A DNA stretch of 64,000 nucleotides from an uncultured Planctomycetales bacterium (GTDB lineage: Bacteria; Omnitrophota; Gorgyraeia; Gygaellales; Profunditerraquicolaceae): contig CAZYCL010000004.1 of NCBI GenBank assembly GCA_964645795.1, positions 88,292 to 152,291 of the forward strand, given 5' to 3'. Position 1 is the stretch's first letter. Each line of letters starts with the position of its first letter. The notes under the pieces are model-generated. The model did not search any database and was not told the origin of the DNA. It saw nothing but the letters and a program-made list of their open reading frames with translations. Positions 40,178 through 58,762 of the stretch are shown here, in pieces. The position numbers were made by a program, and so were the translations under genes.

Positions 40178-40180
40178 GGT

Positions 40181-40519: not shown

Positions 40520-40535
40520 AATAAAAGGGGGGTTT

Positions 40536-40928: not shown

Positions 40929-40935
40929 GGATATT

Positions 40936-42132: not shown

Positions 42133-42145
42133 GAAAAAAGGAGGT

Positions 42146-42580
42146 ATGATATTGTTACCGGGAGAAGATAAATTCCGAATTCTCGTCGTGGATGATGAAA
42201 AGAACATCCAGGAGATGCTCAGCCGGCATTTCCGCTTTTTAGGCTATGATGTGCTCACCGCATCCAACGGCAGGGAAGCGCTGGAGTTGATGGATAAGAA
42301 AAGATGCGACGTGGTGATCACCGATATCAAGATGCCGGTCATGGACGGCGTGGAGCTCATAAGGCAGGTGCACAAGCAGTATCCCATGACGCACGTGATC
42401 GTGATCACCGGCTATGTCACCATGGAGAATGTCTTGGCCTGCATGCGCCATGGCGCGGACACCTGCGTGTATAAGCCCCTGGAAGACCTGAAAGAGCTCG
42501 AAGGCGCGGTCGGCCAGGCAGTAGAGCACCTTAAACACTGGCAGGAGAAGCTCAAGAGCCTTCTTAAGCTGAAGGATTGA
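42146..42580 (+). CDS. single-domain response regulator (CheY-like)
   Basis: ILVVDDEKNIQEM...VITDIKMPVMDG...ITG...KP motifs. Confidence 0.85.
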   Translation: MILLPGEDKFRILVVDDEKNIQEMLSRHFRFLGYDVLTASNGREALELMDKKRCDVVITDIKMPVMDGVELIRQVHKQYPMTHVIVITGYVTMENVLACMRHGADTCVYKPLEDLKELEGAVGQAVEHLKHWQEKLKSLLKLKD

Positions 42581-42585
42581 CGCTT

Positions 42586-44229: not shown

Positions 44230-44326
44230 CCCCCCCTCTTTTTTATAGACAACCCACGCTTAATATGTTATTTTAAATACTTAATTATTCCCTGCTGGAA
44301 AAAGCCCGAAAACTTTCGAAATCCGA

Positions 44327-45421
44327 ATGAAGACCTATTTCCTTAAAGCAGAAGACCTGATAAAATTCTATGATCGCATAGCCGAAGAGTTTGACCTGTT
44401 CGTCCCAACGCTGGTCAAGACCCCTTTTCGCATAAAATGCGACTCCGCCCCTAACCTGCCGCAAGACGATTATCAGCTGAAACGTTACACCGAAACCGCA
44501 AAGGCCGAGGTCGTCTTCAACGATTACCGCGCCATTGAGCCGATAAGGGCATACCTGGTTTATTACAAGGAGCTGGCCTGCGGCTATTTTGAAACCGAGG
44601 CGCCTGAGGCGCGCCAAAAACCTCGCGCCTTAATGGGGGTGAAGAACTGTGATCTTTTCGCGCTTAAGGTGCTTGATTACGTGTTCCTGGGAGGAGATGA
44701 GCCCGACCCGCTTTATAAACAGAGAAGGGAGAGCACATTTATTATCACGGGTGACTGTCCGGCTTTTAAAGAGACCTGTTTCTGCCGGGCCTTCGATATA
44801 AACCCCTTTGCCGTCGAAGGCTTCGATATGAATCTGTCCCCGCTTACCAGCGGCTATGTTGTGGATGTTGCGGGAGACAGGGCCGAGAGGCTGGCCGCAG
44901 GTTTCAGGGAGATCTTAAGCCCTGCTAGCGCCGCGCAGTTATCGGGGAGGGCGGCAAAGAGGGATGCGCTCGTACGCAGGCTCGAGGAGCACCTTTGTAG
45001 CCACAAGATCCCCAAAAAAGAAACCCTCAAAGATATCGTTACCTACGGTTATAACTCTCCCGTATGGCAGGAACAGATGCGCACATGCGTGGAGTGCGGA
45101 GGCTGCGTCTTCGCCTGCGATACCTGCCACTGTTTTCTGCTGGCCGATGAGCCGGCAGGGGAAAAGGCGCGCAGGATACGGCTATGGGACGGCTGTCTTT
45201 ATAAGAACTTCACTACCGTGGCCGGCGGGGCCAATCCCCTGAAGCTACGCTACATGAGGCTGCGTAACCGTTACCTTAAAAAATTCGATTTTTTCATCGA
45301 TAATCTGGGATTTCAGGCCTGCTGCGGTTGCGGCAGATGCATCGATGTCTGTCCCGGCAAGATCGACATTCGTTATATATTGAGAAAGCTTTATGAAGAG
45401 AAATATCTACCAGCCCGTTAA
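44327..45421 (+). CDS. AsrA / sulfhydrogenase-beta (HydB)-like iron-sulfur protein
   Basis: 364 aa with Cys clusters CPAFKETCFCRAF, CVECGGCVFACDTCHC and CCGCGRCIDVCP. Always paired with the following AsrB/HydG-like flavoprotein. Confidence 0.65.
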   Translation: MKTYFLKAEDLIKFYDRIAEEFDLFVPTLVKTPFRIKCDSAPNLPQDDYQLKRYTETAKAEVVFNDYRAIEPIRAYLVYYKELACGYFETEAPEARQKPRALMGVKNCDLFALKVLDYVFLGGDEPDPLYKQRRESTFIITGDCPAFKETCFCRAFDINPFAVEGFDMNLSPLTSGYVVDVAGDRAERLAAGFREILSPASAAQLSGRAAKRDALVRRLEEHLCSHKIPKKETLKDIVTYGYNSPVWQEQMRTCVECGGCVFACDTCHCFLLADEPAGEKARRIRLWDGCLYKNFTTVAGGANPLKLRYMRLRNRYLKKFDFFIDNLGFQACCGCGRCIDVCPGKIDIRYILRKLYEEKYLPAR

Positions 45422-46211
45422 GGCGACTATCGAAGGCATAAAGCAGGAGACCTCCAACATCAAGACCTTCAGCTTAAGCCTGGATGAGCAGTTTTCGTTT
45501 CGTACCGGACAGTTCGTGGAGATGACCGTCCCGGGCTTCGGTGAGGCGCCGTTTACCCCTTCCTCTGACCCGGGCGAGCATGGCAGGTTTGAGCTGACGG
45601 TAATGAAAGCGGGCAGGGTCACTGACAGGCTCCACAGGATGAATCCGGGCGATACCCTCGGTATCCGCGGCCCTTATGGCAAAGGCTATCCCCTGGATTA
45701 TTTCAAGGGCAAGGACATCCTGGTCGTCGGCGGAGGCGTGGGTCTGGCGCCGTTGCGCTCGCTTTTGTTGAGCCTTTTTTCGAATATCGACGCTTACCGC
45801 AGCGTGCTGCTCAGATACGGGGCGCGTACCTCCTCCGATATAGTATATAAAGATTTGATTCCCACATGGCAGAAGCCCGGAAAGACCGATATCGTTACTA
45901 CCGTAGATATCGGGGACCCTTCCTGGGCAGGCAGGGTGGGGCTGGTCACGACGGTATTGAACGACCTGCCGGTTGATATCACAAAAGCTGTATCAGTGGT
46001 CTGCGGGCCGCCGATCATGATGAAGTTCGTGACCCTGAAGCTTCTGGATCTGGGGTTCAGGCCTGCGGATATATTCCTGTCCATGGAGAAGAACATGTCC
46101 TGCGGCCTGGGTAAATGCGGACACTGCCGCGTAGGCAGGTACTACGCCTGCAAAGACGGCCCGGTGTTCACCTACGAAGAATTAAAGGATATACACGACA
46201 TCTGGGACTGA
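45393..46211 (+). CDS. AsrB / sulfhydrogenase-gamma (HydG)-like FAD/NAD(P)-binding oxidoreductase with C-terminal 2Fe-2S
   Basis: FAD-binding RFELTVMKAGRVTDRL, NAD-binding VVGGGVGLAPL and C-terminal CGLGKCGHCRVG...C 2Fe-2S motifs, as in PyrK/HydG/AsrB. Confidence 0.7.
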   Translation: MKRNIYQPVKATIEGIKQETSNIKTFSLSLDEQFSFRTGQFVEMTVPGFGEAPFTPSSDPGEHGRFELTVMKAGRVTDRLHRMNPGDTLGIRGPYGKGYPLDYFKGKDILVVGGGVGLAPLRSLLLSLFSNIDAYRSVLLRYGARTSSDIVYKDLIPTWQKPGKTDIVTTVDIGDPSWAGRVGLVTTVLNDLPVDITKAVSVVCGPPIMMKFVTLKLLDLGFRPADIFLSMEKNMSCGLGKCGHCRVGRYYACKDGPVFTYEELKDIHDIWD

Positions 46212-46297
46212 TCGTTAACCGTTGATCGGTTGCGTAGCTGGAAACCTCATGCGTAAAGATTTGAGCTACGAAACCCAAATGCGCAACACGGCTAAAC

Positions 46298-46792
46298 ATG
46301 AAACGACTCTTTATCGACCTGGAAGTTTGCGCGAAATGCCGGGAATGCAGGGTAGCCTGCGATTATTTCTGGCATGCGCAGAATAACGGCATCACTTCGT
46401 TAAGGGAGTATGCCATATTCGCCCTCCTTTGCCGCCATTGCGAAGAGGCGCCCTGTGTCAACGCCTGTTATCATAATGCGCTGGAGAGGACCGAAGACGG
46501 GCATCTGCGCAGGTACCGCATGCGCTGCACCAGCTGCCGGTCCTGCACCGTTGCCTGTCCGTTTGGGGTGATCTTCGAGGATTTTATTCCTTATCTTGAT
46601 TCCAGCTGCGATTATTGTCTGACTAAGGGCAGCCAGATCCCCCTTTGCGCAAAAACCTGCCCGGAGCATGCCATAGAGTTTAAAGAGGTCGGGGAGGATT
46701 TGGAAAAAGATATTTATCTGGTCGGCGAACACCTGGCCGTGCATACAAAGAGGTGGTCGCGCGAAGACGCACAGCCGCCCAAGAGAAAATAG
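46298..46792 (+). CDS. 4Fe-4S poly-ferredoxin (HycB/MbhN-like electron-transfer subunit)
   Basis: Multiple CxxCxxCxxxC clusters (CAKCRECRVAC, CRHCEEAPCVNAC, CTSCRSCTVACP, CDYCL...CAKTCP). Confidence 0.8.
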   Translation: MKRLFIDLEVCAKCRECRVACDYFWHAQNNGITSLREYAIFALLCRHCEEAPCVNACYHNALERTEDGHLRRYRMRCTSCRSCTVACPFGVIFEDFIPYLDSSCDYCLTKGSQIPLCAKTCPEHAIEFKEVGEDLEKDIYLVGEHLAVHTKRWSREDAQPPKRK

Positions 46793-46793
46793 G

Positions 46794-47708
46794 ATGGCAA
46801 AGTACATTTTTCAATACTTGGTTTTCCCCGGATTTCTGTTTGCGGCCTGTATGGGGCTTTTTGCCGGATGGTTTGACCGCAAGCTCTCCGCCCGCCTGCA
46901 ATGGAGGCTAGGTCCGCCCTGGTATCAGAATTTCATCGATATTATCAAGCTTCTGGGAAAGGAGACCATTATTCCCGAAGGGGCAGGGCTGACTTTTCTT
47001 CTCTCTCCTGCCCTGGCGCTGTTGAGCACTACCCTCGTGGCTACGCTGCTGGGCAGGGCCATTGCCATGCCTTTAGAGAGCGTTGTGGGAGACTTGATCG
47101 TCGCCTTGTATCTTTTGACCGTACCGGCGATAGCCCTGATTTGCGGCGCCAGCGCATCCCGTAATCCCCTGGCTTCAGTGGGTGCCTCCAGAGAGATGAA
47201 GATGGTCCTGGGATATGAGCTGCCGTTTCTTTTGTCGGTAGTCACCGTCATCATTAAAAGCAAAGGCTCTATACAATTAGGCCAGATCATCAATAACCAG
47301 ATAAACTTCGGCTCTACCATTTTCTCGTTATCCGGTATGCTGGCCTTTGTGGTGGCCGTATTCTGCGTGCAGGCAAAGCTCGGCTTTGTGCCCTTCGACG
47401 CCTCCGAAGCGGATCAGGAGATAATGGGCGGCACTTTGATCGAATACTCCGGAGCGGCGCTGGCGCTTTTTAAGCTGACAAGGGCAGTAGCGCTTTATAC
47501 GCTTGTGCTTTTTCTTATCGTATTATTCATGGGCCGGGATACAAGGGCGGCGTTCGTATTCATAAAGTTTGTCGGGATACTTACGGTATTTATACTTATT
47601 AAGAACACCAATCCGCGCCTGCGCATAGAGCAGGCGTTGAGGTTCTTCTGGGGGCCGATGACTGTGCTGGGGATAATTTCCGTGGTCCTGGCGGTTTTCG
47701 GAAGGTAG
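46794..47708 (+). CDS. group-4 hydrogenase membrane subunit (NuoH/HycD/MbhM-like)
   Basis: 304-aa polytopic protein with a NuoH-family pattern (RKLSARLQWRLGP...YLLTVP...GFVPFDASEADQEIMGG). Confidence 0.8.
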   Translation: MAKYIFQYLVFPGFLFAACMGLFAGWFDRKLSARLQWRLGPPWYQNFIDIIKLLGKETIIPEGAGLTFLLSPALALLSTTLVATLLGRAIAMPLESVVGDLIVALYLLTVPAIALICGASASRNPLASVGASREMKMVLGYELPFLLSVVTVIIKSKGSIQLGQIINNQINFGSTIFSLSGMLAFVVAVFCVQAKLGFVPFDASEADQEIMGGTLIEYSGAALALFKLTRAVALYTLVLFLIVLFMGRDTRAAFVFIKFVGILTVFILIKNTNPRLRIEQALRFFWGPMTVLGIISVVLAVFGR

Positions 47709-47711
47709 AAA

Positions 47712-48140
47712 ATGGACCTAAGGACAAAAGCGCTGCTTAATTCGATCTGGGTCTTTCACATAAGCGCCGGTTCCTGCAATAACTGCGATATCGAGATACT
47801 TGATTGCCTGACACCCAGGCACGATGTCGAGAGGTTCGGCATCCAGCTTGTCGGCAGCGTCCGCCATGCGGACGCTTTGCTTATTACCGGGGCGATGAAC
47901 AAAAAAGCCGTGCCGCGCATGAAAAAGCTCTATGAGCAGGCCCCCAAGCCCTGCGTCGTGATAGCTGTCGGCCAGTGCGCCCTTTCACAGCATATGTTCA
48001 AGGATAGTTACAACATGGTTGGGCCCCTGGATACGATACTGCCGGTGGATCTTTATATTCCGGGCTGCCCTCCGAAGCCGGAGGCGATAATCTCGGGAAT
48101 AGTCAAGCTTGTAAACAAAATAAAAGGCAGCAAGGTCTAA
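47712..48140 (+). CDS. [NiFe] hydrogenase small subunit (NuoB/HycG/MbhJ-like)
   Basis: Proximal-cluster Cys: GSCNNCDIE...AVGQCA...PGCPP. 142 aa. Confidence 0.85.
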   Translation: MDLRTKALLNSIWVFHISAGSCNNCDIEILDCLTPRHDVERFGIQLVGSVRHADALLITGAMNKKAVPRMKKLYEQAPKPCVVIAVGQCALSQHMFKDSYNMVGPLDTILPVDLYIPGCPPKPEAIISGIVKLVNKIKGSKV

Positions 48141-48141
48141 A

Positions 48142-48573
48142 ATGGATATGAGGGAGAAGGTAAAAGAGGAGCTGGGTTCTAAGATCAGGCAGTGGCAGGA
48201 ACGTTCCAGCAGGCGCATCTATATCAGTATCGATCAAGACCAGATAGTGCCTGCTGTAGATTTGTTCTTTAAGAAGCTGGAACTGAGGTTTTGCACGGCC
48301 AGCGCCTGCCAGAACCCCGAAGGCTTTGAAATGCTGTATTTCTTCAGCCACGATAAGGCGGGAGAGGTGTATGTCTTGCGCACTTTTCTTAACGACAAGG
48401 ACAAGCCGCAAATAAACTCCATTACCCCGCTTTTTGCGGGCGCCGAGTGGATAGAGCGCGAGATCTGGGAGTTGATGGGGATAGATTTTGCCGGTCACCC
48501 CAACCTTAAAAGGCTGCTTTTGGCGGATGAGTGGCCGCAGGGCGAGTACCCGCTAAGGAAAGAGAAGCATTAA
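48142..48573 (+). CDS. NuoC/HycE-N-terminal (30-kDa) like subunit of group-4 hydrogenase
   Basis: 143-aa NuoC-family fold pattern (TPLFAGAEWIEREIWELMGIDFAGHP). Confidence 0.75.
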   Translation: MDMREKVKEELGSKIRQWQERSSRRIYISIDQDQIVPAVDLFFKKLELRFCTASACQNPEGFEMLYFFSHDKAGEVYVLRTFLNDKDKPQINSITPLFAGAEWIEREIWELMGIDFAGHPNLKRLLLADEWPQGEYPLRKEKH

Positions 48574-48574
48574 T

Positions 48575-49765
48575 ATGTCGCATAAAGTCATAGTCCCGAT
48601 AGGGCCGTATCACCCTCTGCAGGAAGAGCCGGAGTTCTTCCGTCTTTATGTCGAGGGAGAGAAGGTCGTAGATATCGATATTATCATCGGTTACAATCAT
48701 CGCGGCATAGAAAAGCTTTCCGAATCCAAGCATTATGACCAGGTCGCCTATCTTGTAGAGAGGATCTGCGGGATATGCTCTTCCAGCCACCCTTACGCAT
48801 ACGTGTTGGCAGTGGAAGACATCCTGGGCGGTGAGCATAATATAGTTCCCGAGAGGGCCCTGTATATCCGCACGATAGTGGATGAGCTTCAGAGGATCCA
48901 CAGCCATCTTCTCTGGCTGGGGCTGGCCGGCCACTTCATCGGATACAATACGGTCTGGATGTGGGCCTGGAAGCACCGCGAGCCGGTATTGGATATGTTC
49001 GAGGCCATCACCGGCAACCGCAACAATTACGCGATGTTCAAGGTAGGCGGGGTGCGCCGCGACATAGAGGAAAACGATATCCCGATGCTTAAAAAAATGC
49101 TGGATGAGCTTGTGCCGGGGCTGGAGCTGTTCCGGGGGGCGGTCATGGATGACCCGGTAATACAGGCAAGGCTTAAAGGCGTGGGCATCCTTACCAAACA
49201 ACAGGCCATAGACTGGTGCGTGGTGGGCCCGACCGCAAGGGCCTCCGGGGTCAATATCGACGTGCGCCGCGATGAGCCTTACGGGGCTTACGAGAAAGTC
49301 AATTGGACCGTATTTTTGGAGAAAGACGGGGATGTTTTTGCCAAGACCATTATAAGGATCCTGGAGATGCTTGACAGCGTGCATATTATCCGCCAGTGCC
49401 TGGATAAGATGCCCAGGGGCCCGATAGACGCGGATGTAAAGGAGGTCCCTGTCGGAGAGGGTGTAGGCCGGGTCGAAGCGCCCCGGGGAGAATGTTTTCA
49501 TTATGTTGTAAGCGACGGCACAAACCGGCCGGTAAGGCACAAGATCAGGGCCCCAAGTTTTATGAACGTCGCCTCCGATAAGGTATCCGCTGTAGGCGGC
49601 ACGATATCCGATGCCGCCATAACCCTGGCGGCAGTAGACCCCTGTTACTGCTGCACGGAACGGGTGGCGGTCCTGAAAAAGAGCGATAGCAGCCGGATAT
49701 TGAACGGCTGGGATCTGATACGGCTTTCCCGGGAGAAGACCGATAGCCTGAAAAGAGGGGTATAA
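48575..49765 (+). CDS. group-4 [NiFe] hydrogenase large (catalytic) subunit
   Basis: N-terminal Ni-binding motif RICGICSSSH and C-terminal DPCYCCTER (DPCxxC) motif. NuoD/HycE/MbhL-like, 396 aa. Confidence 0.9.
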   Translation: MSHKVIVPIGPYHPLQEEPEFFRLYVEGEKVVDIDIIIGYNHRGIEKLSESKHYDQVAYLVERICGICSSSHPYAYVLAVEDILGGEHNIVPERALYIRTIVDELQRIHSHLLWLGLAGHFIGYNTVWMWAWKHREPVLDMFEAITGNRNNYAMFKVGGVRRDIEENDIPMLKKMLDELVPGLELFRGAVMDDPVIQARLKGVGILTKQQAIDWCVVGPTARASGVNIDVRRDEPYGAYEKVNWTVFLEKDGDVFAKTIIRILEMLDSVHIIRQCLDKMPRGPIDADVKEVPVGEGVGRVEAPRGECFHYVVSDGTNRPVRHKIRAPSFMNVASDKVSAVGGTISDAAITLAAVDPCYCCTERVAVLKKSDSSRILNGWDLIRLSREKTDSLKRGV

Positions 49766-49768
49766 AAA

Positions 49769-50389
49769 ATGCAGGAGCCGGAGAACGTCAAGGCAAAGAT
49801 TTCCGAGATGTCCGAGCTTGCACTGGCCATGTGGCAGCTGACGCACCGCGCGTTTATGGAGCACAACCTGGAGTTGTTTCCCTGGATATTGGATAAAGAG
49901 AACAGGCTTAACAATCTTGAGAAAGAGGTGAGCTCCGGACTTGTGGAATTCGGAAAAATGACCCACTCCGAAGAAGAAAAATCCAGGGCCATGCTTTACT
50001 CCGGGATAGCCGGAGATTTTGAGCTTATCGGTGATTACTGTAAGGATATGCTGGAGCGCGTCCAGATCAAGATAGAGGAGAAGCTGCTTTTCGCGCAAGA
50101 GTCGGTAGACGAGTATCAGGTGCTCTACAAGAGGACGGAGGACGCCCTTGCCGAGGTGGACTTCGCCTTAAAGCGCAGCAATCCTTCGCTGGTAAAAGAG
50201 GTGGCCCGCAAGGACGAGCATATCGATGCCCTGGTGGACGAGTACAGGAATAAGCACAATCAGCGCCTTATCGAAGGCAAATGCAGCCCTTTTGCCTGCA
50301 ATATGTTCCTTAATATGCTCGACTTTACCGCCGCCGTTTATTACCACACCAAGAAAATAGCCAGGAGCATGCTTAAGCTAAAAGAATGA
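49769..50389 (+). CDS. PhoU-like (DUF47 / Na-Pi-cotransporter-associated-type) helical protein
   Basis: 206-aa all-helical protein with paired PhoU-like repeats (…HRAFMEHNLELFPWILDKENRLNNLEKEV…, …ARKDEHIDALVDEYRNKHNQRL…). Confidence 0.45.
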   Translation: MQEPENVKAKISEMSELALAMWQLTHRAFMEHNLELFPWILDKENRLNNLEKEVSSGLVEFGKMTHSEEEKSRAMLYSGIAGDFELIGDYCKDMLERVQIKIEEKLLFAQESVDEYQVLYKRTEDALAEVDFALKRSNPSLVKEVARKDEHIDALVDEYRNKHNQRLIEGKCSPFACNMFLNMLDFTAAVYYHTKKIARSMLKLKE

Positions 50390-52062
50390 ACGGTATTTTT
50401 GTCCAGCCACTCTTCAAGTTTGATTATCTCAGCGCCCCGATAGCCGTGGCGATAGGGGTATTCTTTATTTTCACGCTTATCTACTCCCTGGCTTATATGC
50501 GCCAGAAGAAGGCAGGGCCCCTTTATTACCTTTACATTATTCTTACGGCAGCGGTATCCGTGGCGGCGGTTGCATCCAATAACCTTATCATGTTATTGGT
50601 ATTTTGGGGTTTCCTTGGGTTGCTTTTGTATCTTTTGATCAACTTCGGGGACGAAGAGGCGCCGAAAGCGGCAAAAAAAGCGATGGTGATAGTGGGCGGC
50701 ACCGATGCGATGATGGTCCTGGGGGTAGCGCTTATCTATTATCTGGGTTCAAGTTTTCAGTTTGATTCCGCGAGGCTGGCGATGGACAACGGCCTGGCGG
50801 CGCTGGCATATGTTTGTATCGCCATAGGTTGTTTTGCCAAGGCCGGCGCTATGCCTTTTCATTCCTGGATACCGGATTGCGCCCAGAGCGCGCCTATTCC
50901 GGTCACCGCATATCTGCCGGCTTCCCTTGATAAACTTCTGGGGATATACCTGTTGATACGCTGTATCGGGATATTCGAGATGAACACCGCCGCCAACGTA
51001 TTCCTGGTGATAGTCGGGATGGTGACGATCGTGGCGGCGGTGATGATGGCGCTGGTGCAGCATAACCTAAAGAGGCTTCTTGGGTATCACGCCGTCTCTC
51101 AGGTCGGCTATATGGTACTGGGTATAGGGACAGGCAACCCCATCGGCATTGCCGGCGGGCTGTTCCATATGCTCAACCACGCGCTCTATAAATCCTGCCT
51201 TTTCTTTACCGCCGGAAACGTAGAGCAGCGTACCAGGAGCCTGGAGCTGGATAAGCTCGGCGGCCTGGCCAAACGCATGCCCCTGACCTATGCGAGCGCG
51301 GTCATCTCCAGCTTCTCAATATCCGGGATACCGCCGCTCAACGGATTCTTTTCAAAATGGATGATCTATCAGGGGATAATCTACTGTTTGATAAAAAACT
51401 CCGGTAAACCGCTCAACTTTGTTTATATCTTTGCGATACTGGCAGCGATGTTCGGCAGCGTCCTGACCCTGGCCAGTTTTATGAAGATGCTGCACGCCGT
51501 CTTCCTGGGCCAGAGGCTTGATTCCGGGTGCGAGAATATAAAAGAGGTCTCCTGGCTGATGTGGCTGCCGTGCGTATTCTTTTCGCTGACCTGCGTGTTA
51601 TTCGGGGTATTCGCCTTCTCCTTGCCGCTAAAACATTTTATCTTTCCCGCCGTATCCCTCTATCAGCCGGTTAGCGAGCAGGGGTTGTTCGGCAGATGGT
51701 CTCCGGTGCTGGCGACCTGCCTCATGCTGGCGGGATTGGTGTTGGGGATGCTGTTTTTTTATTTAGGCAATCTCAAAAAGCTTCTTCGTCGGGATTCAAG
51801 CTTTACCGGAGGCGAATGGGAGCAGTTAGAGGGGTCCGATATAGTCAGCGGGACGGAGTTTTACAACTCCATAAAGGAGTACGGCGCGCTTTCAACGGTT
51901 TATAAGCTGGCCCAGAAAGGGACGTTCGATATCTACGCCCAGGCAAAGAAGATCTTCATATTTTCAAAAGGCCTTATTTTCCTGCATAACGGTATATTGC
52001 CTACGTATCTGGTGTGGATGCTTCTGGGTATGATCGGGCTTTTTGCTTTTCTGACGCTCTAA
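50386..52062 (+). CDS. Mrp/NuoL-like antiporter-type membrane subunit (MnhA/MbhH-like)
   Basis: 558-aa polytopic protein with NuoL/MnhA family motifs (FHSWIPDCAQSAPIPVTAYL, FHMLNHALYKSCLFFTAGNV). Confidence 0.85.
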   Translation: MNGIFVQPLFKFDYLSAPIAVAIGVFFIFTLIYSLAYMRQKKAGPLYYLYIILTAAVSVAAVASNNLIMLLVFWGFLGLLLYLLINFGDEEAPKAAKKAMVIVGGTDAMMVLGVALIYYLGSSFQFDSARLAMDNGLAALAYVCIAIGCFAKAGAMPFHSWIPDCAQSAPIPVTAYLPASLDKLLGIYLLIRCIGIFEMNTAANVFLVIVGMVTIVAAVMMALVQHNLKRLLGYHAVSQVGYMVLGIGTGNPIGIAGGLFHMLNHALYKSCLFFTAGNVEQRTRSLELDKLGGLAKRMPLTYASAVISSFSISGIPPLNGFFSKWMIYQGIIYCLIKNSGKPLNFVYIFAILAAMFGSVLTLASFMKMLHAVFLGQRLDSGCENIKEVSWLMWLPCVFFSLTCVLFGVFAFSLPLKHFIFPAVSLYQPVSEQGLFGRWSPVLATCLMLAGLVLGMLFFYLGNLKKLLRRDSSFTGGEWEQLEGSDIVSGTEFYNSIKEYGALSTVYKLAQKGTFDIYAQAKKIFIFSKGLIFLHNGILPTYLVWMLLGMIGLFAFLTL

Positions 52063-52066
52063 GGCT

Positions 52067-52588
52067 ATGGAAATACATCTAATCCTGATATTCATGATCT
52101 GTTCGAGCATCGTGGCCGTAAGGACCAGGGATCTTATCTCAAGCGTTATCGCCCTGAGCGCAACCGGCCTGGGCCTGTGCCTGGCGTTCCTTGTGCTTAA
52201 GGCGCCCAACCTGGCCATAACCAGGCTGGTCATCGAGATACTTTGCGTGATCATCCTTATCAGGGCCACGATCAATAAAGACCTGCCTCTGGTAAAGGAC
52301 GGCCGCTGGATGTTCAACACCGTATCGACCCTGGTGTTTATCGCCGTTTTCCTGGCTTTTGCCTACATTGCGCTAAAGCACTTGCCTGAATTCGGCTCGC
52401 CCCTTATGCTCGTCTCCCGGGATTATCTGGCTATGGGCGTTGAAAAAACCGGCTCCGCCAATATCGTTACCGCCATAAGCTTTGATTTTCGCGGGCTCGA
52501 CGCCCTGGGCGAGGCAGCCATATTGTTTGCAGCAATACTTGGTGTCCTGGCCATAACTAGAAGGACGGGCAAGACCGATGAAAAATAA
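52067..52588 (+). CDS. Mrp antiporter subunit B-like membrane protein (MnhB/MbhD-like)
   Basis: Small polytopic protein in the position and shape of MnhB-domain subunits. Confidence 0.6.
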   Translation: MEIHLILIFMICSSIVAVRTRDLISSVIALSATGLGLCLAFLVLKAPNLAITRLVIEILCVIILIRATINKDLPLVKDGRWMFNTVSTLVFIAVFLAFAYIALKHLPEFGSPLMLVSRDYLAMGVEKTGSANIVTAISFDFRGLDALGEAAILFAAILGVLAITRRTGKTDEK

Positions 52589-53012
52589 AGAACCCGGAAT
52601 GACCCTGATAGTCAAGACCATAACGCGCCTGACCGTAGGCCTCATCTTGATCTACGCCATCTACATAGTCCTGCAGGGGCATATGAGCCCGGGCGGCGGT
52701 TTTGACGGCGGGGTGATCATCGCGCTCTCTTTTATCCATTTGATGCTGGCTTTCGGCAAAGATAAGGTCGTGGCTACCATAAGCGAGAAAAGAGGCCTGT
52801 TGCTCTCAAGCGTCGGCCTGACCTTGTTCTTATTCCTGGCGCGCCTGGGTTTTGTCAGGGAGGGCATCATACATAGCGAGTCGGGGCACTTCAAGCTATT
52901 CGGCGGCGGGCTCATTCCGTTATACGAAGTGTTTATCGCCCTTATGGTGGGGGCGGGGCTTTTTACCATATTCCTGGCACTGGCTTTGTTTACCGGAGAG
53001 AAGAAGCAATGA
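52578..53012 (+). CDS. Mrp antiporter subunit B-like membrane protein (MnhB/MbhE-like)
   Basis: 144 aa, 4 TM, the second MnhB-domain paralog as in Mbh operons. Confidence 0.6.
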   Translation: MKNKEPGMTLIVKTITRLTVGLILIYAIYIVLQGHMSPGGGFDGGVIIALSFIHLMLAFGKDKVVATISEKRGLLLSSVGLTLFLFLARLGFVREGIIHSESGHFKLFGGGLIPLYEVFIALMVGAGLFTIFLALALFTGEKKQ

Positions 53013-53347
53013 GCGCGTATTTTCTGTGTCTGGTGATGTTTGGCATCGGGCTTTACTGCATTTTGAGGAAAAGGAACATTATCAAGATGATCATTGGGCT
53101 TGGGATAATCGATTATTCGGTCAACCTGTTTTTTGTCCTGATCGGCTACCGCTCTAACGGCCGTTCCCCGATATTGGCGCCTGACCAGGACATCCTTAAT
53201 ATGGTCGATCCCCTGCCGCAAGCGGTGGTTCTGACCACCATAGTCATAGGATTGGCGGTAACGATGGTGGTAGTGGCGATAGCGGTAAGGATCTATGAGA
53301 AGTACGGCACATTCGATATCACCAAAATAAAGAGGCTGAAAGGTTGA
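53009..53347 (+). CDS. Mrp antiporter subunit C (MnhC/NuoK-like)
   Basis: 112 aa, 3 TM, NuoK/MnhC-like (MIIGLGIIDYSVNLFFVLIGY). Confidence 0.7.
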   Translation: MSAYFLCLVMFGIGLYCILRKRNIIKMIIGLGIIDYSVNLFFVLIGYRSNGRSPILAPDQDILNMVDPLPQAVVLTTIVIGLAVTMVVVAIAVRIYEKYGTFDITKIKRLKG

Positions 53348-54834
53348 AGACGCTCATATTCTTTATATTCATACCGCTGGGTTTTGCCTGCGCGATAGCC
53401 CTGGCAGGCCCCCGGTCCCGGCGCTTTGCCGAGGCCGCCGCAAACCTCGCCGGCCTGGTAATGGCGTCCTTTTCGCTCTACCTGGTGCAGATAGTCGCCG
53501 CGCATAAAAGCGTTGTCTACAAGATCGGCGGATGGTCATCGAGCCTGGGGATATGCCTGGTCGCCGACGGGCTGTCGGCCCTGATGCTGTTGCTGATCAA
53601 CTGCGTGTCAATGCTTGTGATGGTCTACTCCGTAACTTACATGAACGGGTACAGCGACCGGTGGAAGTTCTACGCGCTTTTCATGCTTTTATTGGCCGGG
53701 CTTAACGGCTTGGCTTTAAGCGGCGACATGTTCAACCTCTACGTATTCCTGGAGCTTACCTCCATTACCGCTTATATATTGGTGGCCTTCGGCATCTCCC
53801 CCGAGAGCCTGGAGGCATCCTTTAAATATGCGATCATGGGGACGCTAGCTTCTCTTTTTATCCTGCTGGGCATCGCTTTCGTGTACGCCCACGCCTCGAC
53901 CCTTAACATGGCCGGCATTGCCGCAGCGTTAACAGAGAGGCCCAACCCTGTCCTTACGGGCTTCGTATCGGTTTTGTTCCTGGCCGGCTTCGGGTTGAAG
54001 GCCGCGCTCGTGCCGTTCCACGCCTGGCTTGCCGACGCCCACTCGTCGGCGCCCTCTCCGGTCTCGGCACTGCTTTCGGGAGTGGTGATCAAGACCCTCG
54101 GCGTCTATGCAATAATGCGCGTTTTCTTCAATGTGCTTGGGGTTTCTGATAAGCTTGGCCTGGCATTGATGGTCCTGGGTTCGCTATCGATGATATTGGG
54201 GGCGCTTATGGCCATAGCCCAGAACGACATAAAAAGGATGTTTGCTTATTCAAGCGTTAGTCAGGTCGGCTACATAATCTTTGCCCTTGGCATAAACACG
54301 CCCCTGGCGATATTGGGCGCGGTATTCCATATGCTTAACCACGCCATCTTCAAGCCGCTGCTGTTTTTAAATGCCGGCTCCATCGAACGCGCCACCGGCA
54401 CGCGCGAGTTAAGCAGGATGGGAGGATTGAATAAAGATCTCCACTTTAGCGGATTTGCCGGCCTGATAGGCGCGATGAGTATTTCCGGAGTGCCTCCTTT
54501 TGGAGGATTCTGGAGCAAATTGATCATAATTATCGCTGCCCTGCAATCAGGGCACCTGGCATTCGCCATTATAGCGGTACTGGTAAGCATCGTGACCCTT
54601 GCTTATTACCTGAAATTCCAGACTTTTGCTTTCTTCGGTTCTCCCCGCCAGAAGCACGCGCAGTTAAAGGAAGCCTCTTGGTTCATGAAGCTGGCGATGT
54701 TTATTTTGGTGCTGGGCTGCGTCTTTTCGGCGCTGCTGGTCATACCGGGATTCGGACAGCTTATTGACTCGGCGGCGCAGGCGCTGCTATCGGGTGCCTA
54801 TTATAAAGAAACGGTTTTGGGGTTGTCGGGATGA
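53344..54834 (+). CDS. Mrp antiporter subunit D (MnhD/NuoM/N-like)
   Basis: 496 aa with FHAWLADAHSSAPSPVSALLSGV and FHMLNHAIFKPLLFLNAG motifs. TTG start overlapping the upstream stop. Confidence 0.85.
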   Translation: MKTLIFFIFIPLGFACAIALAGPRSRRFAEAAANLAGLVMASFSLYLVQIVAAHKSVVYKIGGWSSSLGICLVADGLSALMLLLINCVSMLVMVYSVTYMNGYSDRWKFYALFMLLLAGLNGLALSGDMFNLYVFLELTSITAYILVAFGISPESLEASFKYAIMGTLASLFILLGIAFVYAHASTLNMAGIAAALTERPNPVLTGFVSVLFLAGFGLKAALVPFHAWLADAHSSAPSPVSALLSGVVIKTLGVYAIMRVFFNVLGVSDKLGLALMVLGSLSMILGALMAIAQNDIKRMFAYSSVSQVGYIIFALGINTPLAILGAVFHMLNHAIFKPLLFLNAGSIERATGTRELSRMGGLNKDLHFSGFAGLIGAMSISGVPPFGGFWSKLIIIIAALQSGHLAFAIIAVLVSIVTLAYYLKFQTFAFFGSPRQKHAQLKEASWFMKLAMFILVLGCVFSALLVIPGFGQLIDSAAQALLSGAYYKETVLGLSG

Positions 54835-55328
54835 ACAAGATAAGGATAATACTGTTTTTAGAAACTTTCGCGCTCTGGCTGTTATTGAGCGGCTCCATAG
54901 ACCTTGAGCATGTAGCGGTAGCGGTTGCCTTGGGCGTGCTGGTCTCATATCTGACGGCTGACCTGTTTTCGCCGAAGCTTAAGGTATTCAGGGAGCCGAA
55001 GCGTTATTGCTGGCTCGTTTATTATATAGGCCTGTTCATCTGGGAGTGTATAAAGGCAAACATCGACGGCGCCTATCGCGTGATACATCCGCAGCTCCCC
55101 ATAAACCCCGGGATAGTCAAGGTCAAAACTACGCTTCAGTCCAATCTGGGGCTTACTTTCCTGGCTAACTCCCTTACCCTTAAACCGGGCACCATGACGG
55201 TGGACGTGGATAAGGAGGGCGGGTTTTTGTATATACACTGGGCCAATGTCGAGGCGACAGACGTGGATAAGGCCACTGAGCTTATCGTCAGGAAATTCGA
55301 GACGGTGCTTAAGAGGGTGTTCGAATGA
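54831..55328 (+). CDS. Mrp antiporter subunit E (MnhE-like)
   Basis: 165 aa with an N-terminal 2-TM region plus a soluble domain, MnhE-like. Position in the Mrp module supports the call. Confidence 0.6.
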   Translation: MNKIRIILFLETFALWLLLSGSIDLEHVAVAVALGVLVSYLTADLFSPKLKVFREPKRYCWLVYYIGLFIWECIKANIDGAYRVIHPQLPINPGIVKVKTTLQSNLGLTFLANSLTLKPGTMTVDVDKEGGFLYIHWANVEATDVDKATELIVRKFETVLKRVFE

Positions 55329-55684
55329 GAAGGGCGCGCTGGTTTTTCGGTTTGCTGGGTATAGCGGGAGTTTTCGCGGGGATCGTTATCCTGCCTTTGC
55401 CGTCTCTTTTGGAATGGCAATCGCCGCTTTCAAGAGTGATGTTCTTTTTCCTGGTTTTTTGCGGGACGTTCTGCCTGTGGCGCATACTAAAAGGCCCGAC
55501 CGCCGCGGACAGGGCGGTGGCGCTGGACATACTGGGGATACTCATCGTCGGTTTCTGCGCGATACTGGGGATAAATACCGGCAGGGACTGGTATATCGAT
55601 ATCGGCATCGCCTGGGTGCTCCAGAGCTTTATTTCGATACTGGCCCTGAGCAAATATTTGGAAGGCAAGGGATTCGATGAATGA
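55325..55684 (+). CDS. Mrp antiporter subunit F (MnhF-like)
   Basis: 119 aa, 3 TM, in the MnhF position. Confidence 0.6.
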   Translation: MRRARWFFGLLGIAGVFAGIVILPLPSLLEWQSPLSRVMFFFLVFCGTFCLWRILKGPTAADRAVALDILGILIVGFCAILGINTGRDWYIDIGIAWVLQSFISILALSKYLEGKGFDE

Positions 55685-56012
55685 AACGATAGGGTTCATT
55701 TTCATAATTATCGGGATAACCTTCGATTTCTTCGGTTGTTTGGGGCTCGTAAGGTTTCCCGATGTGTATAACCGGCTGCACTCTTCGATAAAATGCGTGA
55801 CCCTTGGGACCTGCAGCATCCTCTTCGGGCTGTTTTTATACAAAGGTTTTTCGCCTTGCGGCATCAAGGCGCTGCTTTGTATCGTGTTTTTGGTTTTGAC
55901 CGCTCCGGTTTCGGCGCACGCGCTGGCGCGTTCCGCGCATCGGTCCGGGGCCAAGCTCTGGGAAAAATCGGTTTGCGATAAGTATGCAGAGGACAAAGAT
56001 GCGCTATCCTAA
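55677..56012 (+). CDS. Mrp antiporter subunit G (MnhG-like)
   Basis: 111 aa, 3 TM, MnhG-like (MNETIGFIFIIIGITFDFFGCLGLVRFPDVYNRLH). Confidence 0.7.
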   Translation: MNETIGFIFIIIGITFDFFGCLGLVRFPDVYNRLHSSIKCVTLGTCSILFGLFLYKGFSPCGIKALLCIVFLVLTAPVSAHALARSAHRSGAKLWEKSVCDKYAEDKDALS

Positions 56013-56610
56013 GCTAAGAGAGTTAAAAGAAGCGATAAAGGCGCTTATCAGGGGGCCGTATACCAGCCGCTTCCCGCGCCAGCCGCACCGGCCTTATGAG
56101 AAGTTCAGGGGAAGGCCGTACTTCTATGAAGAAGAATGTACGGGTTGCGGCGCCTGCGCGCAGGTCTGTCCTACGGGGGCCATAAGCCTTGAGGATATAG
56201 TGGATGAGAAAGGGGCAAGGCGCGTCTTGACCATACGCTGGGATATCTGTATTTTTTGCGGTAACTGTCAGGCAAACTGCCTTACCGCAAAAGGGATAGT
56301 GCTTTCCCGGGAGTTTGATTTCTCGACCGTCGGCAAGAGAGAGGATCTGAGGCAGAAGATCGAAAAGAGGTTTGTTCTATGCGAATGCTGCGGGGCCCCC
56401 ATCGTGCCGGCCGATCAGTATAAATGGGTAAGCTTGCGGCTTGGGCCGCTATGTTTTGCCAATGCCTCGCTCTTGCTTTCTTATTTACGGCTCCAGGGGC
56501 TGGCCGAACCGGATACGGGCGAGCGCCCCAAGGAAGCCGGATTACTTCGTTCTGACCGCATAAGGCTTTTGTGCCCTGCCTGCCGCCGCCAGGCGGTAAT
56601 CACTTCATAG
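55984..56610 (+). CDS. NuoI/MbhN-like 2x[4Fe-4S] ferredoxin subunit
   Basis: CTGCGACAQVCP and CIFCGNCQANC motifs. An alternative ATG start lies at 55999. Confidence 0.8.
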   Translation: MQRTKMRYPKLRELKEAIKALIRGPYTSRFPRQPHRPYEKFRGRPYFYEEECTGCGACAQVCPTGAISLEDIVDEKGARRVLTIRWDICIFCGNCQANCLTAKGIVLSREFDFSTVGKREDLRQKIEKRFVLCECCGAPIVPADQYKWVSLRLGPLCFANASLLLSYLRLQGLAEPDTGERPKEAGLLRSDRIRLLCPACRRQAVITS

Positions 56611-56618
56611 AACTGCGC

Positions 56619-57803
56619 ATGTTCTCATCGCTAAGGGTAAAGAATTACAGGATCTATTGGATAGGGATGTTTGTTTCGCTTATCGGCACCTGGATCCAGC
56701 AGATCGCCCAAAGCTGGCTGGTATTCGAGCTTACCGGCTCATCATTGCTTTTGGGCCTTAACGGCTTCCTTAGCACTATACCGATATTCATGCTGTCTTT
56801 AGCCGGAGGGGTATTGGCTGACCGGCTGCCCAAGAGGAAGATACTTCTTTATACCCAGACCGCGTTCATGCTCCTGGCGTTCATTCTGGCGGCCCTGACA
56901 TTTATGAAACTAATAAGGCCGGTCCATATAATGATCATCTCTTTTTTAAATGGGATAGTCATGGCTTTTGACGCGCCATCGCGGCAGGCGATGGTAGTGG
57001 AGCTGGCGGGAAGGGAGAACCTGCCTAACGCCATCGCCCTTAACTCCGTCGCATTTAACTCTTCCAGGATCATCGGCCCGGCCGTGGCGGGCGTGCTTAT
57101 AGCCCTGGTCGGCATGGCCGGCTGTTTTCTGATAAACGGCATAAGCTTTTTGGCGGTGATAACGGCGCTCGCCTTTATCCGCATAAGCTATCGCCCCGGA
57201 AAAAGAAGCAAAAATCCTTTAGAGGATTTGAAGGAAGGGTTGCTTTTTGTAAAAAGCCACCGCAGCATATGTTCGTTGATAATAATGGTCGGCCTGATAA
57301 GCCTTTTCGGCACCTCCTACGTCATTTTGATGCCGGTATTCGCGGATAACGTGCTCAAGACCGATATCGGCGGCATGGGAGGGCTAATGTCGGCGGCGGG
57401 GTTCGGCGCGCTGTGCGGGGCGCTCCTGTTGGCGCGGCTCGGGGATTTTGCGGGCAAGGGAAAGTTTTTATACTTCTCATGCGTAATATTCTCGGCGGCC
57501 CTGACCGTTTTAGCGCTTGCCAGGGTCTATTGGGCCTCGATGGCGGTCCTGGCGCTGATAGGCGCCAGTGCCGTGACAGCCGTTTCTTTGATCAACACGC
57601 TCCTGCAGACCACCGTAGCCGATAATTTCCGGGGCAGGGTGATGGGCGTATTCATGATCACCTTCGCCGGGCTTACCCCTTTCGGCAACCTCATCTCCGG
57701 CGCGCTGGCCCAGAGAGTAGGGGTGGCCGCGGCCCTCATGATTAGCGGCTCAGCGTGCCTGGTGTTTTTTATTTTTCTGGTCCGGGCGCCCAGGGACCTT
57801 TAG
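56619..57803 (+). CDS. MFS transporter
   Basis: 12-TM pattern with the MFS signature loop GGVLADRLPKRK. Start set at ATG 56619. Confidence 0.8.
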   Translation: MFSSLRVKNYRIYWIGMFVSLIGTWIQQIAQSWLVFELTGSSLLLGLNGFLSTIPIFMLSLAGGVLADRLPKRKILLYTQTAFMLLAFILAALTFMKLIRPVHIMIISFLNGIVMAFDAPSRQAMVVELAGRENLPNAIALNSVAFNSSRIIGPAVAGVLIALVGMAGCFLINGISFLAVITALAFIRISYRPGKRSKNPLEDLKEGLLFVKSHRSICSLIIMVGLISLFGTSYVILMPVFADNVLKTDIGGMGGLMSAAGFGALCGALLLARLGDFAGKGKFLYFSCVIFSAALTVLALARVYWASMAVLALIGASAVTAVSLINTLLQTTVADNFRGRVMGVFMITFAGLTPFGNLISGALAQRVGVAAALMISGSACLVFFIFLVRAPRDL

Positions 57804-57940
57804 ATTATTTTTATTTGAATTGTCTGCGGCATTTTGCTAAAATTAATCGACAGGAGGTGAAGGGGCAGGAACAGGTTTTTCTAGCGGGTTTAACGCGGGT
57901 GATATTGACACCGTCATCATAACGATAAAAGGAGAACAGG

Positions 57941-58402
57941 ATGAAAAAATGTGCGGTAGTGTTGGGCGTGCTGGTTTTGGCCATTGCGGTTACGGGTTGC
58001 TCTAAGAATGACGATATGATGGGGGAACCGCCTGAGAATATGACCATGGATGAGTTGGGGGTTATCGGCAGCGATCAGAAGGCCCCCGGAGCACAGGCTG
58101 CGGCTTCAGCGCAAGGGGATCCGGCATCCGCACAGGAGATGCCCGCGGTCGCCCAGCCCGTGATTCCTGATCCGCAAGCAATGCCGATATCAGCCGGCGT
58201 GGGTTCGCCGCAAGAGATACAGGCAGCGCTAAAGAACGCCGGTTTTTACAGCGGCAAGATTGACGGTAAGATCGGGCCGATGACGAAGCAGGCGATTATC
58301 GAGTTCCAGAAAGCCAATAAGCTGAAAGCCGACGGAAAAGTGGGGCCCAGGACCTGGGAAGTTTTAAGCAGGCATCTGGGCGAGTCCGCTTCTTCGCGAT
58401 AG
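57941..58402 (+). CDS. lipoprotein with C-terminal peptidoglycan-binding (PG_binding_1) domain
   Basis: Lipobox LAIAVTGC and a C-terminal AALKNAGFYSGKIDGKIGPMTKQAIIEFQKANKLKADGKVGPRTWEVL repeat typical of PG-binding domain 1. Confidence 0.8.
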   Translation: MKKCAVVLGVLVLAIAVTGCSKNDDMMGEPPENMTMDELGVIGSDQKAPGAQAAASAQGDPASAQEMPAVAQPVIPDPQAMPISAGVGSPQEIQAALKNAGFYSGKIDGKIGPMTKQAIIEFQKANKLKADGKVGPRTWEVLSRHLGESASSR

Positions 58403-58448
58403 CGGCTTTACTTGAAAATATATAAATAATATAGTATAATTGTCTTAG

Positions 58449-58632: not shown

Positions 58633-58762
58633 CATATCCCAACAGACCCGGGTTGCCGGGATTGCCGCCAGAAATCCGGCGCCAATATTTTGTTGGGATT
58701 TTTTATTTTTCCTCCCACAAATTGTCTGTTCATTTAATTTCCTAAATGTTATAATAACGGTA

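Follow-up and report, generated by a model that had tools for sequence, protein, structure and literature searches.

Between positions 44327 and 56610 of the 64-kb window analysed here (the whole 64,000-nucleotide stretch of contig CAZYCL010000004.1, from an uncultured Omnitrophota bacterium, in which all coordinates below are counted), 19 genes on the plus strand include those for a group 4 [NiFe] hydrogenase, an Mrp-type set of membrane subunits and, at the 5' end, an iron-sulfur protein and a flavoprotein that resemble the beta and gamma subunits of sulfhydrogenase as well as AsrA and AsrB. With slightly more than even confidence, we read these genes as one operon for a single membrane complex in which, judging from gene content, the electron wire of formate hydrogenlyase (FHL) would be retained and an NAD(P)H diaphorase would replace formate dehydrogenase. 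It is the combination of a peripheral arm that follows FHL logic, a diaphorase of the sulfhydrogenase type and a membrane arm of the Mrp type that leads us to regard the locus as encoding a probable NAD(P)H-linked, ion-translocating [NiFe] hydrogenase. The beta/gamma-type module is a constant companion of this hydrogenase: it is attached in all 69 loci with a readable neighbourhood.

Gene content and cofactor sites

An earlier reading of the window, made from the sequence only, had described an Mrp-linked group 4 [NiFe] hydrogenase operon at this position, and both the Pfam content and the Ni-Fe cysteines bear this out. Every gene that it listed lies where it was placed, on the plus strand and with strong Pfam support, although a PhoU-domain gene at 49769-50389 had been overlooked. 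What it took for two MnhB-like genes is, according to Pfam, an MbhD/MbhE fusion followed by MnhB, and its polyferredoxin, which carries four Cys motifs, is of the HycB/CooF type. Nor is the gene order simply the reverse of mbhA-N, as had been proposed: the hydrogenase module comes first, the Mrp module follows in canonical mrpA-to-G order, and a NuoI-like gene stands last. Neighbouring genes overlap or are separated by a few bases, the exception being an 86-bp spacer at 46212-46297. The features are as follows.

44246-44274, plus strand: sigma-70-like promoter match (TAGACA-17-TATTTT, TG-extended) in the 97-bp spacer before the first gene; consensus match only
44327-45421, plus strand: sulfhydrogenase beta-like / AsrA-like Fe-S protein, 364 aa (Pfam Fer4_22 1.5e-26; PDB 9nez_B 6e-34)
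45393-46211, plus strand: sulfhydrogenase gamma-like / AsrB-like flavoprotein, 272 aa (Pfam FAD_binding_6, NAD_binding_1, DHODB_Fe-S_bind; PDB 9nez_C 2.3e-59)
46212-46297, plus strand: 86-bp asrB-hycB spacer with palindromes (fold z-score -0.82)
46298-46792, plus strand: HycB/CooF-like ferredoxin, 164 aa, four Cys motifs (Pfam Fer4_11; PDB 7qv7_B 4.3e-12, 7z0s_B 5.6e-12)
46794-47708, plus strand: NuoH / MbhM / HycD-like membrane subunit, 304 aa (Pfam NADHdh 7.6e-59)
47712-48140, plus strand: NuoB-like hydrogenase small subunit, 142 aa, one [4Fe-4S] (Pfam Oxidored_q6 1.5e-29)
48142-48573, plus strand: NuoC / MbhK-like subunit, 143 aa (Pfam Complex1_30kDa 1.1e-25)
48575-49765, plus strand: [NiFe] hydrogenase large subunit, 396 aa (Pfam Complex1_49kDa 2.9e-73, and NiFeSe_Hases)
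49769-50389, plus strand: PhoU-domain protein, 206 aa (Pfam PhoU 8.2e-17); overlaps the next gene by 4 nt
50386-52062, plus strand: antiporter-like subunit 1 of NuoL / MrpA-N / HycC / MbsH' type, 558 aa (Pfam Proton_antipo_M 3.7e-57)
52067-52588, plus strand: MbhD + MbhE fusion, 173 aa (Pfam MbhD 3.7e-14, MbhE 9e-8)
52578-53012, plus strand: MnhB / MbhF-like subunit, 144 aa (Pfam MnhB 7.3e-21)
53009-53347, plus strand: MnhC / MbhG / NuoK-like subunit, 112 aa (Pfam Oxidored_q2 1.2e-28)
53344-54834, plus strand: antiporter-like subunit 2 of MrpD / MbhH type, 496 aa (Pfam Proton_antipo_M; PDB 6cfw_H 1.9e-80, 7qru_D 6.4e-75)
54831-55328, plus strand: MnhE / MbhA-like subunit, 165 aa (Pfam MNHE 1.7e-41)
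55325-55684, plus strand: MnhF / MbhB-like subunit, 119 aa (Pfam MrpF_PhaF 1.4e-15)
55677-56012, plus strand: MnhG / MbhC-like subunit, 111 aa (Pfam PhaG_MnhG_YufB 1.9e-25)
55984-56610, plus strand: HycF / NuoI-like 2x[4Fe-4S] subunit, 208 aa (Pfam Fer4; C-terminal CxxC...CxxC)

In translation the large subunit carries the Ni-site motifs noted earlier, RICGICSSSH (L1) and DPCYCCTER (L2), the latter followed by a 33-aa C-terminal tail, and its Ni-Fe cysteines C65, C68, C357 and C360 are invariant across 80 orthologues. Ligand motifs of this kind on a NuoD-like large subunit, partnered by a NuoB-like small subunit that has one [4Fe-4S] cluster (C22, C25, C89 and C119, invariant in 77 orthologues) and by NuoC-, NuoH- and NuoI-like proteins, are the marks of a group 4 [NiFe] hydrogenase. 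Among solved structures, MbhL of Pyrococcus furiosus is closest to the large subunit (6cfw_L, 2.8e-87) and HycE next (7z0s_E, 2.1e-75), and the profile for the group-3 large subunit ShyA reaches 1.6e-11, matching the N-terminal motif region only. An extra cysteine, C359, stands in L2 (49637-49663, residues 355-363) just before the last ligand Cys, at a position where MbhL and HycE have Ser; it is kept in 99% of the 80 orthologues as well as in the distant loci L084-L086 and L088 (numbers L004-L088 denote the genome and metagenome stretches compared).

The iron-sulfur connectors resemble those of FHL. For the ferredoxin encoded at 46298-46792 the best PDB matches are of the HycB type (HycB4, 7qv7_B; HycB, 7z0s_B), and its 16 Cys are 80-100% conserved across orthologues. 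The terminal ferredoxin is NuoI-like, as had been recognised, but stands nearer to HycF (7z0s_F, 2.5e-17) than to MbhN (6cfw_N, 7.5e-9); it has C-terminal CxxC pairs in common with HycF and matches the NCBIfam model of the formate hydrogenlyase Fe-S subunit at 2.8e-26. An alternative start at 55999, as in the gene call on an identical metagenome contig, would give a protein of 203 aa.

The set of small Mrp subunits is complete (MnhB, C, E, F and G together with MbhD/E), and the operon in the window encodes two Proton_antipo_M proteins. The 496-aa antiporter-like subunit is of the MbhH/MrpD kind, and the 558-aa subunit lies at about equal distance from MbhH, NuoL, MrpA, HycC and MbsH' and is without some 70 N-terminal residues, its PDB alignments starting near reference residue 76-88.

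For the first two genes of the operon the closest solved structures are the beta and gamma subunits of P. furiosus sulfhydrogenase I (9nez_B and 9nez_C). At its N-terminus the beta-like protein carries a site of four Cys, which is joined by two ferredoxin-type motifs and further Cys; 15 Cys are invariant among 63 orthologues. The gamma-like gene, whose start overlaps the beta-like gene by 29 nt, encodes a protein with the hallmarks of the FNR/PyrK superfamily, namely an FAD site, a GxGxxP motif for NAD(P) binding and intact [2Fe-2S] Cys: C237, C242, C245 and C253 are invariant across 67 orthologues, in which conservation of the segments APFTPSS, GGGVGlAPLRsL and CGPP reaches 90% or more everywhere except at two positions. 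In NCBIfam bits the beta-like protein scores 139 against a cutoff of 750 for HydB, 160 against 690 for ShyB and 117 against 323 for AsrA; the gamma-like protein scores 197 against 650 for HydG, 192 against 600 for ShyC and 228 against 289 for AsrB. All of these scores fall below the equivalog cutoffs, and we treat the two proteins as a separate homologous subfamily.

Might the beta/gamma genes be transcribed on their own, from a promoter in the 86-bp gap, as the sequence-only reading had allowed? Positions 46212-46297 contain no match to a sigma-70-like promoter and none to an intrinsic terminator, the fold of the spacer is unexceptional (see list), and the corresponding gap is no longer than 20 nt in 46 of 68 related loci. 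On these grounds we reject separate transcription of the pair, and the view that the beta/gamma genes belong to the hydrogenase operon, also held earlier, is strongly supported, with sulfhydrogenase I matches and the synteny described below pointing the same way. The promoter match at 44246-44274 is a candidate operon promoter. Long asrB-hycB spacers, found in the window and in L015, L021, L032, L051, L061 and L068, contain short tandem or inverted repeats that are capable of forming hairpins and differ in sequence from genome to genome. They may be lineage-specific intergenic repeat elements; a conserved regulatory element is ruled out, the long spacers being unrelated in sequence.

Linkage and variants among relatives

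More than 100 proteins share 80-85% identity with the large subunit, the named ones mostly from Candidatus Omnitrophota metagenome-assembled genomes (MAGs), and an identical large subunit occurs on a 52-kb metagenome contig whose genes follow the same order. Species-representative genomes, when scanned, yielded 591 stretches with a relative of the large subunit, the best 80 of which (L004-L083) were used to compare neighbourhoods. Taking taxon labels from the deposited MAG records, these 80 are mostly Omnitrophota, the rest being Elusimicrobiota/Endomicrobia, Clostridia, Nitrospirota, Margulisiibacteriota and Ca. Tritonobacter (Auribacterota). Synteny was assessed by tblastn of every window protein against all loci, counting those in which 4.3 kb or more lie upstream of the large subunit. 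In 62 of 62 such loci, labelled Omnitrophota, Elusimicrobiota/Endomicrobia, Clostridia, Nitrospirota and Auribacterota, the order asrA-asrB-ferredoxin-nuoH...nuoD is found on one strand; the 18 loci that miss the asrA-like gene, the asrB-like gene or both are all cut by contig ends. The sequence-only reading had suggested a search for the same linkage in other genomes, which thus finds it from Omnitrophota to Auribacterota, and had considered the linkage unusual. Within this family it is the rule, and similar linkages are already in print (PMC6349859, 10.1101/765248, PMC13582414).

The association also holds at greater distance. Seven distant beta homologues from other phyla, each 37-44% identical to an Endomicrobia copy, all adjoin NuoB/C/D hydrogenase genes: five lie in the same Mrp-linked operon (in Ca. 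Mcinerneyibacterium, on an Elusimicrobia-labelled contig and on three metagenome contigs) and two in a membrane-less variant (L085 and L088). The pair is strictly linked to this type of hydrogenase. Looking for a cultured carrier with the Endomicrobia beta-like protein as query, we obtained only MAG-derived named matches. In three cases, one Elusimicrobia-labelled locus and two metagenome contigs (L086 4434-7681, L087 6678-9887 and a contig of JGI 3300075153), genes for an acyl-CoA dehydrogenase, EtfB and an EtfA-ferredoxin fusion lie on the same strand directly 5' of the beta-like gene, a layout like that of the NADH-using Bcd/Etf type.

The membrane-less variant comprises beta, gamma, a molybdopterin-oxidoreductase-like protein of 538-548 aa, NuoB, NuoC, NuoD and a NuoI-like protein (L085 10001-16543, L088 9001-15604), with a HycB-like gene in L085 only and neither NuoH nor antiporter genes nearby. 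Its large subunits are 61-63% identical to that of the window and retain DPCYCCTER; judged by its genes, it would be a soluble 'group 4' hydrogenase. That the beta/gamma genes are kept where membrane genes are absent implies that they travel with the catalytic module. Among the unassigned open reading frames (ORFs) inspected in some of the loci L004-L083, none encodes a molybdopterin oxidoreductase; as a possible hiding place for such an enzyme, the 3.8-kb insert of L074 was found to hold pilin-like and unassigned ORFs.

Electron route and competing explanations

In the complex that we propose, NAD(P)H would reduce the FAD and [2Fe-2S] cluster of the gamma-like subunit, from which electrons would pass through the Fe-S clusters of the beta-like subunit to the four clusters of the HycB/CooF-like protein, which would connect the beta/gamma module to the NuoI-like subunit. 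They would continue through the two HycF/NuoI-like clusters and the single NuoB-like cluster to the Ni-Fe site. The membrane arm, consisting of the NuoH-like subunit, the two antiporter-like subunits, MbhD/E and MnhB, C, E, F and G, would couple movement of H+ or Na+ to the redox reaction, so that the complex would link the NAD(P)H/NAD(P)+ couple, the H+/H2 couple and an ion gradient. That the subunits assemble physically, that NAD(P)H is the substrate, which way the reaction runs and which ion is pumped are all inferences; homology and motifs suggest coupling to NAD(P)H in place of ferredoxin.

The midpoint potentials are -414 mV for H+/H2 and -320 mV for NAD(P)+/NAD(P)H, which makes NAD(P)H some 94 mV more positive at standard conditions. 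Given this gap the complex should run reversibly: H2 would be formed from NAD(P)H only at very low H2 or with input from the ion gradient, and oxidation of H2 to NAD(P)H with ion pumping would provide energy for roughly one ion.

Several known systems come close to this design. P. furiosus Mbh (6CFW, group 4d), which has the closest large subunit, shares the NuoB/C/D/H/I-like core, equivalents of MbhA-G (MnhE, F, G, MbhD/E, MnhB and MnhC) and the MbhH/MrpD-like antiporter subunit. However, there are two antiporter-like subunits in the window and one in Mbh, the window adds the HycB-like ferredoxin and the beta/gamma flavo-Fe-S subunits, its NuoI-like subunit is HycF-like, a PhoU gene is inserted, the gene order is different, and electrons reach Mbh directly from ferredoxin. 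In these respects the window operon departs from the P. furiosus type (group 4d), which has a single antiporter-like subunit, direct docking of ferredoxin on MbhN and no extra redox subunits. With E. coli FHL-1 (7Z0S, group 4a) the likeness lies in the peripheral arm, which runs from an input enzyme through HycB and HycF to the small subunit and the large subunit, in the HycE match and in the C-terminal tail after L2, which HycE also has; the HycB/HycF-type connectors of a formate hydrogenlyase are present. Unlike FHL-1, the window lacks a formate dehydrogenase or any molybdopterin protein, has the beta/gamma diaphorase as its input, and combines these with an Mrp-type membrane arm with small subunits rather than HycC/HycD only.

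The beta/gamma proteins align over nearly their full length with those of P. furiosus sulfhydrogenase I (9NEZ, group 3b) and keep the Fe-S, FAD and NAD(P) motifs. In contrast to that enzyme, their partners are a group 4 large subunit and a NuoB-like small subunit instead of group-3 alpha and delta subunits, the complex is predicted to be membrane-bound, and scores fall far short of the HydB/HydG cutoffs. Neither group 3b, given those family scores and the adjoining NuoD-like large subunit, nor AsrABC, given AsrA/AsrB scores below cutoff and the lack of an AsrC-type gene in the window, describes the system. Complex I (NuoA-N), finally, shares the NuoB/C/D/H/I core, the NuoK-like and NuoL/M/N-like subunits and, as we suppose for the window, a peripheral module that oxidises pyridine nucleotide. 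It differs in having a quinone site where the window enzyme keeps a Ni-Fe site, and NuoE/F/G where the window has an FNR/PyrK-type beta/gamma module.

No AsrC/siroheme, molybdopterin or carbon monoxide dehydrogenase (CODH) genes occur among the credible scanned genes of the 64-kb window. The sequence-only reading had named an ordinary formate hydrogenlyase or Ech as the finding that would overturn it, but no formate dehydrogenase and no Ech-type layout is seen; as the window has no molybdopterin or CODH gene and its Mrp module is complete, we reject an ordinary Ech, CO-hydrogenase or formate hydrogenlyase.

Related gene clusters have been described before. In Saganbacteria RX5A, Matheus Carnevali et al. 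2019 found asrA-, asrB- and cooF-like genes and an unclassifiable molybdopterin oxidoreductase beside an Mrp-Mbh whose nearest hydrogenases were those of Zixibacteria and Omnitrophica, and suggested that the "oxidoreductase module" might take the role of NuoE/F (PMC6349859). Meheust et al. 2020 gave such clusters of Saganbacteria and Elusimicrobia the name "Mbh-Mrp-oxidoreductase type", with function unknown (10.1101/765248). A 2026 paper reports homologues of sulfhydrogenase I beta and gamma in group 4b clusters whose formate dehydrogenase (Fdh)-like subunit is without the catalytic residue, proposes a three-way bifurcating network for these clusters, and presents AlphaFold3 models that put the beta/gamma homologues inside the electron network of related group 4b complexes (PMC13582414). 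The window has the asrA-, asrB- and cooF-like genes beside an Mrp-linked hydrogenase but, in contrast to all of these, neither a molybdopterin oxidoreductase nor an Fdh-like subunit. Its operon is thus a simpler form, without the molybdopterin subunit, of kin to Mbh, formate hydrogenlyase and sulfhydrogenase. Since the gene linkage has already been seen in sister clusters, our claim is a modest one; within an incomplete coverage of the literature we found no publication on a molybdopterin-free form with beta/gamma genes or on NAD(P)H as the sole partner.

Enzymes of Omnitrophota, Ca. Tritonobacter and Endomicrobium have been published as HydDB group 4g Mrp-linked Mbh, and the passages on these relatives make no mention of beta/gamma genes (PMC8542988, PMC9324843, PMC11257099). 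In the same passages, the published calls disagree with the label of group 4d/4e that the sequence-only reading had attached to the operon. One of our loci, L054, belongs to Ca. Tritonobacter lacicola and has a large subunit 68% identical to that of the window; the passage on its MAG assigns the Mrp-linked Mbh to group 4g (PMC9324843).

Several considerations weigh against an NAD(P)H-linked enzyme. Under standard conditions, making H2 from NAD(P)H is an uphill reaction. The scores of the beta- and gamma-like proteins are so far below the NCBIfam equivalog cutoffs that NAD(P)H use rests on motifs, and ferredoxin might still dock at the HycB-like or the NuoI-like subunit. Co-divergence speaks for beta/gamma as part of the system, in that pairwise divergence of the large subunit correlates with that of beta (rho 0.71) and gamma (rho 0.62; 0 of 500 permutations as high) to a degree comparable with accepted subunits (NuoB 0.54, NuoI 0.86), but such correlations are confounded by common species history. 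The molybdopterin-oxidoreductase-like subunit that the sister variants add is a hint of a three-way system of the bifurcating type, in which beta/gamma would be one branch. Finally, published reconstructions of relatives presume, in the passages concerned, a ferredoxin donor (PMC8542988, PMC9324843, PMC11257099).

How might the beta/gamma genes be explained if ferredoxin is indeed the donor? One scenario, which we consider rather unlikely although it fares best among the competitors, is a ferredoxin-dependent, H2-evolving Mbh-Mrp enzyme in which beta/gamma provide a second, side input or output, either by joining ferredoxin and NAD(P)H at a single hydrogenase in a confurcation- or bifurcation-like manner or by balancing the two pools. 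Every characterised Mrp-linked Mbh, such as that of P. furiosus, uses ferredoxin, and the 4-cluster HycB-like protein offers branch points. The three-branch network proposed for group 4b clusters with beta/gamma homologues (PMC13582414) and the third redox subunit of the sister variants fit this scenario as well. However, the gamma-like subunit is a simple FNR/PyrK-type flavoprotein with no recognised bifurcating flavin site, the operon in the window includes no third redox enzyme, and the NuoI-like subunit stands nearer to HycF, which binds HycB in FHL, than to the ferredoxin-docking MbhN.

A second scenario separates the two modules: beta, gamma and the HycB-like protein would form a soluble NAD(P)H:ferredoxin-type oxidoreductase, only co-expressed with an ordinary ferredoxin-dependent Mbh and feeding or draining its ferredoxin pool. 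Co-expression alone would also account for the conserved synteny, and in the window 86 bp lie between asrB and hycB. Yet most relatives have a spacer no longer than 20 nt, the HycB-like gene sits on the hydrogenase side of the spacer, HycB-type proteins are integral to formate hydrogenlyase (7z0s), and beta/gamma stay with NuoB/C/D/I even where there is no membrane arm, all of which makes the scenario improbable. Reduction of sulfur compounds, be it of sulfur or polysulfide as by sulfhydrogenase or of sulfite as by AsrABC, with electrons from H2 or the membrane complex, is suggested by homology to sulfhydrogenase beta/gamma and AsrA/AsrB and by the name 'sulfhydrogenase subunit beta (sulfur reductase)' that orthologues bear in some sources, but we regard it as very improbable indeed, for the 64-kb window holds no AsrC/siroheme gene, scores stay below the AsrA/AsrB cutoffs, and sulfur reduction by the P. 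furiosus sulfhydrogenase is generally held to be non-physiological.

Returning to the NAD(P)H-linked hydrogenase, a module of the NAD(P)H-oxidising type that is always attached means that published models with a ferredoxin partner may be wrong. A broader proposition, which we put forward tentatively and with somewhat less than even confidence, is that the enzyme is an ion-translocating NAD(P)H:H+ oxidoreductase, a hydrogenase-type complex I, that it is the main hydrogenase of Omnitrophota and occurs also in genomes labelled Endomicrobia/Elusimicrobiota, Clostridia, Nitrospirota, Auribacterota and Mcinerneyibacterium, that its ferredoxin partner has been mis-assigned in print, and that the pyridine-nucleotide module was recruited independently. 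If NAD(P)H is the real partner, energy models of Omnitrophota, Endomicrobia and other uncultured anaerobes that route ferredoxin to H2 would need revision. One reversible machine would then connect the pool of NAD(P)H with the partial pressure of H2 and an ion gradient, with a bearing on syntrophy and acetogen-like H2 uptake, and would present an independent parallel to a step postulated for the origin of complex I, in which a membrane hydrogenase recruited an NADH module.

Variation within the operon and neighbouring genes

Small soluble genes of regulator type are found inside several of the operons (window 49769-50389, L074 8401-9018, L072 6621-6995, L077 7505-7885, L084 9422-9874). A PhoU-domain gene is present in 25 of 72 related loci; in the window it stands after nuoD and before the first antiporter gene, in the Nitrospirota locus L074 between nuoH and nuoB. 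Endomicrobia loci have, in place of PhoU, a gene for a CBS-pair protein that separates the ferredoxin gene from nuoH, and in Ca. Mcinerneyibacterium a CBS gene lies just upstream. The PhoU and CBS proteins may be regulatory or assembly subunits.

The membrane arm varies, too. A third antiporter-like subunit of about 463-467 aa is encoded in L008, L009, L019, L027, L046, L072 and L077, between the large subunit and the MrpA-like gene, where in some loci it takes the place of PhoU. An Omnitrophota sub-lineage (L015, L016, L017 and L022, also L012) is without MbhD/E and MnhB, C, E, F and G; it retains beta/gamma, the hydrogenase, PhoU and the antiporter-like genes, which are followed directly by the NuoI-like gene.

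All credible genes across the whole window (1-64000) lie on the plus strand, and cumulative GC skew climbs throughout. Antisense ORFs at 48506-50098 (530 aa), 52661-53221 and 55487-55996 were taken as spurious, being without a Pfam family. Pfam scans of the credible genes revealed no hyp maturation genes in the 64-kb window, so these must sit elsewhere.

Genes for histidine kinases, response regulators and a CheA-like kinase lie 5' of the operon. They form a signalling block at 31856-44229 (a Cache kinase, a LuxR-type regulator, a HAMP/PAS kinase, Hpt, several receivers and a CheA/CheW-like kinase) that stops 97 bp short of the hydrogenase genes. Two PAS hybrid histidine kinase paralogues, at 22710-25034 and 37874-40177, are 51% identical over 669 aa and were assigned to this block. 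On the 3' side come genes for an MFS transporter, a peptidoglycan-binding protein and a GH1 glycosidase. The MFS_3 transporter, right after the operon in a block at 56571-61977, is kept at 57-64% identity across many Omnitrophota loci, and L022 also keeps the peptidoglycan-binding and GH1 genes 3' of it. The last gene of the block in the window encodes cNMP-binding, ParA-like and patatin domains. Gene order thus points to 56571-61977 as a probable syntenic block in the Omnitrophota lineage. Far upstream, at 7202-8827, a gene for a NIL-domain and 2x[4Fe-4S] ferredoxin comes after an HcyBio homocysteine-biosynthesis gene, a pair that resembles the sulfide-dependent homocysteine pathway of methanogens.

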